From Escherichia phage KEP3, in sequence record PP047753: a stretch of 64,000 nucleotides of DNA. One strand, written 5' to 3'. Positions 44,951 through 46,539 of the stretch are shown piece after piece. How positions within the stretch are numbered: position 1 is the stretch's first letter; each line of letters opens with the position of its first letter. The position numbers and the translations under genes were made by a program. The notes below the pieces were generated by a model. It worked only from the letters and a program-made list of their open reading frames with translations. It searched no databases and was not told the DNA's origin.

Positions 44951-45029
44951 TGGTACTCCATATCGGATTCGAACCGATACATAACACAGATTTTAAGTCT
45001 GGCCTCTCTGCCAATTGGAGTAATGGAGC
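44951..45029 (-). tRNA. tRNA with anticodon TAA (Leu codon UUA), class-I-like length
   Basis: T-arm ATCGG-TTCGAAT-CCGAT, anticodon loop CTTAAAA, discriminator A; short variable region. Confidence 0.55.
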
Positions 45030-45031
45030 AT

Positions 45032-45107
45032 TGGCGGGGGATGTTGGAATTGAACCAACTTCTTCGATTTCAAAGACCGAGGTTTTAACCTTGTAAACTA
45101 ATCCCCT
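45032..45107 (-). tRNA. tRNA-Gln: tRNA-Gln (TTG)
   Basis: T-loop TTCAATT, anticodon loop CTTTGAA. Confidence 0.65.
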
Positions 45108-45115
45108 TTAAATCT

Positions 45116-45673
45116 TTATTTTCTTAGTGGATGAATAAAGAATGCCAACATAACTCTCTCCCTTGAGAATGCTCTTTCTTCTGGGACAACACTTTTAAGT
45201 TTCCATCCAACATAAATTCTCCAGTAGAATTGTTTACCAAAGATTTTAATTGATGGTACAAAAGCGAATAATCCCCAAGCATTACTGTTCCACATCAGGA
45301 GATAACCTGTCTGATTATCTTTAGGGTTAGAACTTACGTTGATATTACCTTTCCACTTAGTAACATCTTTTACATCTCTTCCTAACACATGGTAAGAGAA
45401 GTTATAAGCTTTGTTTCTCCAGAGCCAACCGACTCTCTGCATATAGATACCAAGCTTACCAATCTTTCGAATCTTAGCCCATCGTTTGACATGACCTTCA
45501 TCGCCATCAATTGGGTTGTCATATGTCTCCATCCATCTGAATCCAAAAGGTAAGTGTCCTTTCTTCTCACTGTAAAATGGAACTACAAAAGGTGCTAAGA
45601 TAACTGCTAAGATTGCTGCAAATGGCTCTAACAAAGCTAAGAAAATCCATGAAGCATACTTCAAATATCTCAT
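45116..45673 (-). CDS. hypothetical membrane protein embedded in tRNA array
   Basis: ORF track; AGAGG RBS; hydrophobic N-terminus. Confidence 0.45.
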   Translation of the reverse strand: MRYLKYASWIFLALLEPFAAILAVILAPFVVPFYSEKKGHLPFGFRWMETYDNPIDGDEGHVKRWAKIRKIGKLGIYMQRVGWLWRNKAYNFSYHVLGRDVKDVTKWKGNINVSSNPKDNQTGYLLMWNSNAWGLFAFVPSIKIFGKQFYWRIYVGWKLKSVVPEERAFSRERVMLAFFIHPLRK

Positions 45674-45694
45674 CTAAATAGCCTCTTTAAATTG

Positions 45695-45768
45695 GCGCAG
45701 GATAAGGGATTCGAACCCCTATTAACAGCTTCGTAGACTGTTGCTCTATCCATTTGAACTAATCCTGC
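45695..45768 (-). tRNA. tRNA-Arg: tRNA-Arg (ACG)
   Basis: T-loop TTCGAAT, anticodon loop CTACGAA. Confidence 0.7.
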
Positions 45769-45866
45769 TTACCTACAAGAACACCATACAGTTTTTCACA
45801 AGAGTTGTTTTTACGCCTGTTTTTGAATGACGCTATAAACTTTTTTGCAATTGATTTATTACTCAT
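45759..45866 (-). CDS. possible small ORF (36 aa) with strong RBS
   Basis: AGGAGA 5 nt before ATG; 3' end overlaps tRNA-Arg 5' end. Confidence 0.2.
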   Translation of the reverse strand: MSNKSIAKKFIASFKNRRKNNSCEKLYGVLVGKQD

Positions 45867-45882
45867 AGTGTTCTCCTAAAAT

Positions 45883-45960
45883 TGGTGTTCCAAGACGGAT
45901 TCGAACCGTCACTAGTACAAGGTTTGAGCTTGCATCCTCTGCCAATTGGGATACTGGAAC
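45883..45960 (-). tRNA. tRNA with anticodon CAA (Leu codon UUG), class-I-like length
   Basis: T-arm GACGG-TTCGAAT-CCGTC, anticodon stem GCAAG/CTTGT, loop CTCAAAC, discriminator A. Confidence 0.55.
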
Positions 45961-45961
45961 A

Positions 45962-46036
45962 TGGTACTCACTAAAGGACTTGAACCTTTTTCTTCATCTT
46001 GTAAGGGTGATGTTTTACCATATAAACTAAGCGAGT
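45962..46036 (-). tRNA. tRNA-Val: tRNA-Val (TAC)
   Basis: T-loop TTCAAGT, anticodon loop CTTACAA. Confidence 0.6.
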
Positions 46037-46132
46037 ATGAAAGAGGTCTGAAGTTGTGCCGCTAACTCAACTCCGTGGGATTTGTTACGGTCTTCAGTTG
46101 ACTCAAAGCGGTCTTTCACTTGACCTCTAAAT

Positions 46133-46208
46133 TGGTGCTCCCACAAGGATTCGAACCCTGATAAGTTGCTTACAAGGCAACCGTAATAGCCAATTATACG
46201 ATAGGAGC
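46133..46208 (-). tRNA. tRNA-Thr: tRNA-Thr (TGT)
   Basis: T-loop TTCGAAT, anticodon stem GTTGC/GCAAC, loop CTTGTAA. Confidence 0.7.
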
Positions 46209-46215
46209 ATTAATT

Positions 46216-46290
46216 TGGAGCATCCAGAGGGAATCGAACCCTCAACATCAGTTTGGAAGACTGTAATTTTCCCGTTTAAACTATGGATGC
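46216..46290 (-). tRNA. tRNA-Gly: tRNA-Gly (TCC)
   Basis: T-loop TTCGATT, anticodon loop CTTCCAA. Confidence 0.65.
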
Positions 46291-46296
46291 ACTAAT

Positions 46297-46372
46297 TGGT
46301 GGAGTCACTGAGAATTGAACTCAGTTCCCAAGTTTGCAAAACTCGAATTTTAACCATATAAACTATGACCCC
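46297..46372 (-). tRNA. tRNA-Ala: tRNA-Ala (TGC)
   Basis: T-arm CTGAG-TTCAATT-CTCAG, anticodon loop TTTGCAA. Confidence 0.65.
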
Positions 46373-46378
46373 ATTGTT

Positions 46379-46454
46379 TGGTACAGGTGGAGGGAATTGA
46401 ACCCATCGTCTTACTGATTAAGAGTCAGCCGCATAACCATTTTGCTACACCTGC
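46379..46454 (-). tRNA. tRNA-Lys: tRNA-Lys (CTT)
   Basis: T-loop TTCAATT, anticodon loop CTCTTAA. Confidence 0.65.
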
Positions 46455-46461
46455 ATTAATT

Positions 46462-46539
46462 TGGTAGGAGACAAGGGATTCGAACCCTCAAACACCAACT
46501 TCTAAGGATGGTAGGTTTACCAATTACCGTCAATCTCCC
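46462..46539 (-). tRNA. tRNA with anticodon TAG (Leu codon CUA), class-I-like length
   Basis: T-loop TTCGAAT, anticodon loop CTTAGAA, discriminator A. Confidence 0.5.

Follow-up and report, generated by a model that had tools for sequence, protein, structure and literature searches.

Can a tRNA with a leucine anticodon and no long variable arm serve as a leucine tRNA in an enterobacterial cell? The question is raised by three tRNA genes in a 64,000-nt stretch of the genome of Escherichia phage KEP3 (sequence record PP047753; hereafter, the window), whose anticodons, UAA, CAA and UAG, all read leucine codons and whose variable regions are only 5 to 7 nt long. A first, sequence-only reading of the window had located the genes and left two alternatives: compact leucine tRNAs charged through A73 and tertiary elements, or tRNAs whose identity differs from their anticodon. 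The analysis reported here indicates that they are almost certainly genuine tRNA genes, and that they are likely to be functional type I leucine tRNAs, charged by the host's leucyl-tRNA synthetase (LeuRS).

Structure and leucine identity of the three genes

ARAGORN, Rfam and a position-by-position parse, anchored on the anticodon and the T-loop of each gene, returned every detail of the first description, including the lengths of 79, 78 and 78 nt and the presence of A73 in all three, and added the strand, which had been left unstated and is the minus strand. All three genes exceed the gathering score of the Rfam RF00005 tRNA model (29 bits). Gene tRNA-Leu(UAA) (44951-45029, 47.5 bits; 76 nt plus an encoded CCA) has its anticodon at 44995-44993 and the 7-nt variable region GUUAUGU at 44985-44979, with G1.U72, A9, a 3-bp D-stem (CUC/GAG), the D-loop CAAUUGGCAGA, a C27.U43 mismatch and A73; it parses as GCUCCAU UA CUC-CAAUUGGCAGA-GAG G CCAGA CUUAAAA UCUGU GUUAUGU AUCGG UUCGAAU CCGAU AUGGAGU A CCA. 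Gene tRNA-Leu(CAA) (45883-45960, 43.6 bits; 75 nt plus an encoded CCA), with its anticodon at 45926-45924 and the 6-nt variable region ACUAGU at 45916-45911, contains G1-C72, A9, the D-stem UCC/GGA, again the D-loop CAAUUGGCAGA, the anticodon loop CUCAAAC (C38) and A73, and parses as GUUCCAG UA UCC-CAAUUGGCAGA-GGA U GCAAG CUCAAAC CUUGU ACUAGU GACGG UUCGAAU CCGUC UUGGAAC A CCA. Gene tRNA-Leu(UAG) (46462-46539, 40.0 bits; 75 nt plus an encoded CCA) has its anticodon at 46504-46502 and the 5-nt variable region UGUUU at 46494-46490, and shows G1.U72, G9, an irregular 18-nt D-arm, ACGGUAAUUGGUAAACCU, with one extra nucleotide, a U30.U40 mismatch and A73; its parse is GGGAGAU UG ACGGUAAUUGGUAAACCU A CCAUC CUUAGAA GUUGG UGUUU GAGGG UUCGAAU CCCUU GUCUCCU A CCA. 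The latter gene is the least regular of the three, because of its D-arm and U30.U40, and its Rfam register is one base off that of ARAGORN; its D-arm can be drawn either with a C11.C24 mismatch and an extra U in the loop, or with the pairs A10-U25, G-C, G-C and U13-A22 and a bulged C.

Class II tRNAs have a variable arm of more than 10 nt that forms a stem-loop, and the variable regions of these three genes (7, 6 and 5 nt) form no stem. In a type I tRNALeu, a leucine anticodon goes together with a short variable loop, of 5 nt or more and with nucleotide 48 included, and this is what we found in the three genes, whose variable regions all end in U48. In the work on Streptomyces coelicolor, five nucleotides were the minimum of the variable loop for good charging, with nucleotide 48 needed among them (PMC6614811). 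The structures drawn by ARAGORN, a check that had been proposed with the sequence-only reading, show the same anticodons and no long arm. The short arms are not an artefact of the software, because long arms are drawn for the tRNA-Ser (93 and 90 nt, with variable regions of 21 and 20 nt) and the tRNA-Tyr (88 nt, 15 nt) of the same tRNA cluster.

The UAA and CAA genes were said to share an unusual D-loop. They do share it, having CCAAUUGGCAGAG in common, and the loop is not unusual. Their D-arm, of 17 nt, has three base pairs in the stem and 11 nt in the loop (N-AAUUGG-N-A-N-A), which is also how the D-arms of Escherichia coli leuW, leuX and leuZ and of the tRNALeu of phage T5 are laid out. This leucine layout reads N13-A14-A15-Y-Y-G18-G19-N-A20a-N-A22, and the UAG gene has the same loop with one extra nucleotide. 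A parse of all 26 tRNAs of the window showed that the Leu-type D-arm is restricted to the three leucine genes. By its layout, the D-loop is that of a canonical leucine D-arm, and would be diagnostic rather than odd.

The three genes also contain U8:A14, A15:U48, G18G19 in the Leu-type position, A20a, U54:A58, A73 and the T-loop UUCGAAU (U54, U55, C56, A58), and the UAA and UAG genes have G1.U72, as does E. coli leuZ. The determinants described for E. coli LeuRS are A73, A14, A15-U48, G18G19, A20a and the tertiary pairs that join the D-loop to the T-loop (PMC9976931; PMC6614811, introduction); the anticodon and the long arm are dispensable, and variants without anticodon and variable arms are still active (PMC9976931). 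The size of the arm is the major determinant for seryl-tRNA synthetase (SerRS; PMC9976931). Since these identity elements are retained in all three genes, the evidence from sequence favours a genuine leucine identity, as in the compact-tRNA alternative of the first reading.

All three phage anticodon loops depart from those of the host at positions 32, 37 or 38, for example CUUAGAA versus UUUAGGU for UAG and CUCAAAC versus UUCAAAA for CAA. The motif A36A37A38, with i6A37, is a prerequisite for methylation of position 34 by TrmL (PMC9976931), and the CAA gene lacks it because of its C38. Such changes in the anticodon loop have been linked to the evasion of anticodon nucleases (PMC10264068).

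Published tRNAscan-SE isotype scores are available for Shigella phage Sf14, whose UAA and CAA orthologues are each 1 nt different from those of the window. The Leu model is first for both, with 60.2 versus 54.2 bits (Lys) for UAA and 49.1 versus 36.1 bits (Lys) for CAA; isotype-specific scores were also among the checks that had been proposed. These scores bear on the alternative that the genes have a leucine anticodon and are charged by another synthetase, being either class I tRNAs with a mutated anticodon, which would misread leucine codons, or decaying copies. The absence of the long arm is taken as a sign of a chimera in tRNAscan-SE 2.0, where human tRNA-Leu-CAA-5-1 scores as tRNAMet (PMC8450103), and the margins of the Leu model are modest, both for the UAA orthologue and for the other Leu(TAG) allele (67.4 versus 65.7, Ile2). 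Nevertheless, Leu is the top model for the near-identical Sf14 genes, and the window genes have neither G3:U70, the alanine determinant, nor a long arm for SerRS. The remaining E. coli synthetases read anticodon bases that the leucine tRNAs of the window do not offer. We thus found no support for an identity other than that of the anticodon, and consider it extremely improbable.

Several observations weigh against functional leucine tRNAs charged by the host enzyme. The stems are imperfect, with C27.U43 in the UAA gene and U30.U40 and the irregular D-arm in the UAG gene. Single-sequence minimum free energy folding gave the full cloverleaf for none of the three genes, the fold of UAG being the nearest, and in all three unmodified sequences the cloverleaf lies ca. 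4 kcal/mol above the minimum free energy fold; we weigh this gap neither way, because it is usual for unmodified A+U-rich tRNAs. The base of the long arm is contacted, at nucleotide 47h, by Arg811 of E. coli LeuRS, and the R811A change costs ca. 2-3-fold (PMC3561953), so that some loss of efficiency is expected without the arm; the window genes, having no long arm, lack the unpaired nucleotide 47n of its 3′ base, the contact point of Arg811. The isotype margin of UAA in the Sf14 scores is just 6 bits, and the published score for the Sf14 Leu(TAG) gene is not transferable, because this allele differs from that of the window. Finally, in S. coelicolor a type I tRNALeu(CAA) is found alongside the type II tRNALeu, and both kinds are charged by the only LeuRS of the cell (Fan et al., NAR 2019, PMC6614811). 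This is a precedent for one bacterial LeuRS serving both types, but E. coli LeuRS "could not leucylate" the S. coelicolor type I tRNALeu(CAA), and the Streptomyces enzyme was called the only prokaryotic LeuRS able to charge both types (PMC6614811). This type I tRNA carries C48 (PMC6614811) and, therefore, has no A15:U48, whereas the phage tRNAs have U48; the C48 may explain the failure of the E. coli enzyme.

The negative result with E. coli LeuRS and the one bacterial type I tRNALeu assayed with it (PMC6614811), as well as the imperfect stems, would also fit stable tRNA-shaped RNAs that act outside translation, either as decoys for tRNA-directed nucleases or toxins or as elements for processing or regulation of the operon. 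Additionally, overexpressed phage tRNATyr can partly protect the host tRNATyr from Septu (PMC13096335). However, the anticodon loops retain U33 and a purine at position 37, and the anticodons are precisely the three needed for the leucine codons that the phage over-uses; the genes conserve A73, the encoded CCA and the LeuRS core, which a decoy for an anticodon- or arm-directed nuclease would not need, and without the arm they cannot mimic the class II tRNALeu of the host. A role only outside translation is, in our view, very unlikely.

Conservation and distribution of short-armed tRNALeu

The reading of the three genes as leucine tRNAs can be confronted with their conservation, which goes well beyond chance in all of them. 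Salmonella phage Felix O1 has an identical (100%) copy of the UAA gene, and 215 of 263 phage records match the gene at 99% or more, whereas the 2.7 kb around it reach this level in just one of 330 records, so the gene is better conserved than its surroundings. For the CAA gene, 247 phage records show an identity of at least 95%; for the UAG gene, 70 show at least 99% and another 261 show 80-90%, with homologues of ca. 84% identity in T5-like phages (more than 200) and in a Cronobacter phage of the Vequintavirinae. The UAG gene has different anticodon stems within Felixounavirus: CCAUC/GUUGG in the window, CCUCG/CGAGG in FM4b and UCUCG/CGAGA in momo and SUT_S720, these swaps restoring full pairing while the odd D-arm is conserved. 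This fully compensated exchange argues that the UAG gene is under selection. A BLAST search with the three genes found no copy in 5,426 complete E. coli genomes, and an origin as copies of a host or prophage gene was consequently discarded.

The slot for Leu(UAG) is polymorphic in the Ounavirinae: Sf14 (locus L248, 2429-2505) and several Felixounavirus records carry an unrelated allele, also short and of a subtype with A9, in place of the G9 allele of the window. In Salmonella phage FG1m (locus L002, 5999-6076), a tRNA gene continues from the 5′ two-thirds of Leu(CAA), by way of the shared GGTTCGAATCCG, into the 3′ end of Leu(UAA), with deletion of the intervening genes for Arg(ACG), DUF7338 and Gln(UUG). 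This chimera is an example of recombination between short leucine genes, and its product is probably dead, because the acceptor strands no longer pair. In the T5-like phages, more than 200 records carry a homologue of the short Leu(UAG); in a comparison of T5 and HASG4, the same Ala-Leu slot holds an 85-nt, long-armed tRNALeu(UAG) in T5 (locus L004, 11625-11709) and a 77-nt, short-armed one in HASG4 (locus L246, 7997-8073). A derivation of the short gene by deletion from a type II gene in the same slot was rejected; since both sequences differ throughout, the slot looks like a case of allele replacement and not of simple deletion.

Short leucine tRNAs also occur in phages unrelated to Felix O1. 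With the UAA gene as query, BLAST pointed to Aeromonas phage AhP_Mru1 (Demerecviridae) and Lactobacillus phage LpeD (Herelleviridae), with three leucine tRNAs each, of 74-77 nt and with the same anticodons, and Erwinia phage Coenus contains three more. The cultured phages with short leucine tRNAs belong to at least four unrelated groups, Ounavirinae, Demerecviridae, Vequintavirinae and Herelleviridae. We then scanned IMG/VR with an exact pattern (Leu D-loop, Leu anticodon loop and T-loop, at short spacing), which identified at least 120 loci; among the loci listed, ARAGORN predicted 164 leucine tRNAs of 72-78 nt (without CCA) versus 27 long ones, and a long arm in 73 of 74 tRNA-Ser and 29 of 31 tRNA-Tyr. 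The variable region of the 177 short leucine tRNAs parsed from viral contigs was generally of 5 nt (145 genes), and less often of 6 (24) or 7 nt (7).

The sequences of this family covary as expected for a cloverleaf. In the 165 distinct short leucine tRNAs, 97.5% of the pairs over 20 stem positions are standard, versus 58.5% with the partners shuffled, and most stem positions show four to six types of pair. The short viral genes have A73 in 172 of 173 cases (99%), U48 in 168 of 173 (97%), A14 in 100% and A15 in 97%; the frequencies of G18, G19 and A20a were not counted, because these bases were partly imposed by the search pattern. The retention of the Leu-type D-arm, U48 and A73 in 97-100% of the distinct sequences is a further argument against charging by another synthetase, and so is the recurrence of all three leucine anticodons, with the same body plan, in unrelated phages, which would not result from a one-off anticodon shift.

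The frequency of the short form was estimated around hits to motifs of unrelated tRNAs, tRNA-Met and tRNA-Arg(UCU), in IMG/VR. In these two samples, 25 of 96 leucine tRNA genes were short (26%; 95% interval, 18-36%), although some of the contigs are proviral, with host flanks that may add long-armed host genes to the count; the corresponding figures were 0 of 54 for tRNA-Ser and 2 of 35 for tRNA-Tyr. The sequence-only reading took most phage tRNA-Leu to be long-armed; ca. 74% of the genes have the arm, and the short form is not rare.

Two subtypes can be distinguished. The first, with A9, C12-G23 and C13, includes the UAA and CAA genes of the window and those of LpeD, the Erwinia phages and the Actinomycetota; the second, with G9, G12-C23 and G13, includes the UAG gene of the window and those of the Aeromonas phage and the T5-like phages, and its D-arm resembles that of proteobacterial type II tRNALeu. 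Genes of the window type are already annotated as tRNA-Leu in public records. We found no description of short-armed tRNALeu from phages in the literature, including a survey of viral tRNA genes and the tRNAscan-SE 2.0 paper (PMC8450103), in a search that covered few subscription journals, and no remark on the arm in the phage tRNA papers examined. Short-armed tRNALeu are common in phages of Enterobacteria and in many other phages, a setting in which, as far as we could find, they had not been described; the type I architecture itself is known.

This distribution raises the possibility that the loss of the arm is adaptive. The tRNAs would be specific for leucine, and without an arm they would offer no handle to arm-directed nucleases or toxins and no occasion for confusion by SerRS, so that decoding of leucine codons would continue while the class II tRNAs of the host are attacked; this would be an addition to a function as leucine tRNAs, and not a substitute for it. 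There are precedents for such attacks: Retron-Eco7 and Septu cleave the variable loop of the host tRNATyr, from which the T5 tRNATyr escapes by means of a distinct variable loop (PMC13096335), and MenT3 requires the long variable loop of tRNASer (PMC11541572). The abundance of the short form in at least four unrelated phage groups is consistent with this idea, given that the hosts checked have only long-armed tRNALeu, and so are the contrast between the type II gene of T5 and the short form of its relatives, in the same slot in HASG4, and the departure of the phage anticodon loops from those of the host, which fits nuclease evasion (PMC10264068). Against it, we came across no toxin or defence system directed at the variable arm of tRNALeu; those on record act on Tyr and Ser, and these are the very classes whose arms the same phage keeps. 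Furthermore, the short design is native to chromosomes of Actinomycetota, where an argument based on phage defence does not apply, and about three quarters of phage leucine tRNA genes retain the arm. An adaptive loss thus seems doubtful to us.

Proposed role in decoding and the tRNA cluster

Considered again as leucine tRNAs, the three genes would be co-transcribed with the rest of a cluster of 26 tRNA genes and processed by host RNases; addition of CCA is unnecessary, because it is encoded. Host LeuRS would then leucylate them through A73 and the shape of the core formed by the D-loop, the T-loop and the variable region, ignoring the anticodon and without requiring the arm. Of the resulting tRNAs, UAA would decode UUA and UUG, CAA would decode UUG, and UAG would decode CUA and related CUN codons. 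These codons are more frequent in the phage, of 39% G+C, than in the host, which reads them with the minor, single-copy isoacceptors leuZ, leuX and leuW. Leucine codon usage in 57 open reading frames (ORFs) of the window was TTA, 27.7%; CTT, 27.0%; CTG, 16.0%; TTG, 12.4%; CTA, 10.4%, and CTC, 6.5%. In E. coli, ca. 50% of the leucine codons are CTG.

The arm would be absent from the leucine tRNAs because LeuRS does not need it, and would be kept in tRNA-Ser because SerRS does, the arm of tRNA-Tyr being kept as well. A loss in Leu together with retention in Ser and Tyr is the pattern expected if only those arms are maintained that a synthetase requires. We infer this reason for the loss, as well as the expression of the genes and their leucylation by enterobacterial LeuRS; what the sequences show is the structure of the genes, their retained identity elements, the covariation across the family, and how conserved and how widely distributed the genes are.

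Judging from its matches, the window is from a Felixounavirus, a phage similar to Felix O1: region 44600-47300 matches 330 phage records, nearly all from Felixounavirus and relatives, with hosts in Escherichia, Salmonella, Shigella and Citrobacter. The cluster, as delimited by ARAGORN, spans 43756-49525, with all 26 genes in minus orientation and interrupted by four ORFs. Its tRNAs correspond to 19 amino acids, tRNA-Trp being absent from the 26 genes identified by ARAGORN, and every gene that this program delimits fully ends in an encoded CCA. A scan for promoters and terminators in 43500-51500 showed no excess over shuffled sequence, with 16 promoter-like sites versus 16.9 expected. There are perfect -35 hexamers (TTGACA) upstream of tRNA-Pro and a terminator-like hairpin (43593-43576) downstream of tRNA-Cys; they occur at a chance-level frequency and are only suggestive. 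The gene for tRNA-Glu(UUC) (49361-49438, minus strand) has the same 5′ acceptor strand, GUUCCAG, as tRNA-Leu(CAA).

One of the ORFs of the cluster (47602-48159, minus strand; 185 aa) matches HNH endonuclease families of PHROGs (best E-value 3e-33) and no Pfam family. When it is read from the first ATG, its start overlaps tRNA-Met (48104-48180) and its end overlaps tRNA-Ile (47533-47608), and it is probably a homing endonuclease inserted into the cluster. Insertions of HNH or endonuclease VII genes are found at other positions of the cluster in Felix O1 and other relatives. The tRNA genes also surround two conserved ORFs with domains of unknown function, DUF7338 (45116-45673, minus strand) and DUF7217 (43930-44664, minus strand); the DUF7217 homologue of Sf14 is annotated as a putative membrane protein. 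Directly upstream of the cluster, a 471-aa ORF (49691-51106, minus strand) matches PHROG 850, "RNA-binding protein" (E-value 1e-183), as well as Pfam DUF2828 and DUF7788, and a search of PDB sequences with this product found no relative.

Type I tRNALeu in bacteria and other known systems

The sequence-only reading took bacterial tRNA-Leu to be of class II, which is not general: apart from Streptomyces (PMC6614811), type I genes are native across the Actinomycetota. Scanning one genome per bacterial species with the pattern used for IMG/VR identified at least 120 loci, and those listed are overwhelmingly from Actinomycetota, such as Nocardia, Mycobacterium, Rhodococcus, Gordonia, Arthrobacter and Corynebacterium. 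The short leucine gene is the sole tRNA within 8 kb in 89 of the 120 loci listed, and for this reason these genes look native. Among those listed, the single genes have anticodons UAA (66) or CAA (24), and nearly all share the body plan of the UAA and CAA genes of the window: U8 A9, NNC-CAAUUGGCAGA-GNN and a variable loop such as CCAGU. A minority of the bacterial loci listed are in tRNA arrays of up to 30 genes in other phyla, such as Acidobacteriota and Planctomycetota. Short tRNALeu(UAA) and tRNALeu(CAA) thus appear to be native, single-copy genes in many genera of Actinomycetota, far beyond the published case of Streptomyces. The short form may also extend to Mycobacterium tuberculosis, where the MenT3 paper singles out Leu-2, -3 and -5 as having a long variable loop (PMC11541572) and the other tRNALeu may be short.

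The closest genomic neighbour of the UAA gene, among those compared, is an Arthrobacter tRNALeu(UAA), with 78% identity at fixed positions; the UAA and CAA genes are 67-78% identical at these positions to Arthrobacter-type genes, although with sequences of tRNA length descent and convergence cannot be separated. The UAG gene is equally close to long-armed (0.67) and to short leucine tRNAs, and sequences of 75 nt cannot settle whether there were two origins.

If the three genes are leucine tRNAs, the natural substrate range of bacterial LeuRS would be wider than described. Streptomyces is the only bacterial exception that has been studied in detail, and is presented as rare and in need of a special LeuRS; the presence of short leucine genes in Felix O1, among the best-known phages of Salmonella, and their recurrence in many other phage groups would imply that an ordinary enterobacterial LeuRS routinely serves short-armed tRNALeu during infection. 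A function of this kind is at odds with current statements in reviews and with the one published test of cross-charging. A tRNA specialist would not be astonished, however, since the arm is known to be dispensable for E. coli LeuRS. A more far-reaching proposal, which we consider rather unlikely, would be that short-armed tRNALeu are a widespread phage design, kept because the loss of the arm removes a surface for defence systems and toxins as well as cross-talk with SerRS, and that the LeuRS of enterobacteria and Firmicutes charge type I tRNAs efficiently in vivo. If true, this would contradict the view that Streptomyces LeuRS alone serves type I tRNAs, as well as the statement in a review that long arms are found in tRNALeu everywhere except in animal mitochondria; moreover, an anti-defence role of the loss would add a structural route to the known escape from tRNA-directed immunity through the anticodon loop. 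In practical terms, pipelines and isotype models that read the missing arm as the sign of a pseudogene or chimera would mis-score about a quarter of phage leucine tRNAs, and compact leucine tRNAs recognized independently of the anticodon would be useful scaffolds for suppressor and genetic-code engineering.

The closest known systems differ from the window genes in distinct ways. The S. coelicolor type I tRNA likewise has a short variable loop, a leucine anticodon, A73 and an ordinary cloverleaf, and the type I genes of the Actinomycetota share with the UAA and CAA genes U8 A9, a D-arm of the form NNC-CAAUUGGCAGA-GNN and variable loops that end in GU. In contrast to both, the short form of the window is carried by a virulent enterobacterial phage, and the chromosome of its host has none. 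The window genes also differ from those of the Actinomycetota in their variable regions of 5-7 nt, rather than 5 nt, and in their encoded CCA, and the UAG gene belongs to the second subtype (G9, G12-C23), with a D-arm like that of proteobacterial type II tRNAs. The cluster of Mycobacterium mucogenicum, in which a tRNALeu(TAG) with a short loop is noted in one sentence (PMC6582537), is similar in having a short tRNALeu within a tRNA array, alongside normal long-armed chromosomal copies, although it is actinobacterial and chromosomal and not from a phage.

The type I tRNALeu of animal mitochondria share with the window genes the short variable loop and the identity elements A73 and A14 (PMC9976931). 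They have degenerate D- and T-loops and a dedicated LeuRS, whereas the window genes have a bacterial elbow (G18G19, UUCGAAU) and would need the single LeuRS of the host. Engineered E. coli tRNALeu without variable and anticodon arms are charged and edited if A73 and the D/T pairs are intact (Larkin et al., 2002, summarised in PMC9976931); those constructs were made in the laboratory, and the window genes are natural, conserved alleles. Finally, leuZ (UAA), leuX (CAA) and leuW (UAG) of E. coli, of 85-87 nt, have the same three anticodons and are the single-copy minor isoacceptors of the host. The type II tRNAs of E. coli and the T5 tRNALeu(UAG) share with the window genes the layout of the D-arm, A14, A15:U48, G18G19, A20a and A73; they differ in the anticodon-loop flanks, with U32 versus C32 in the window genes and with C38 in the CAA gene of the window, and in a variable region of 13-15 nt that forms a stem-loop, where the window genes have 5-7 nt and no stem.

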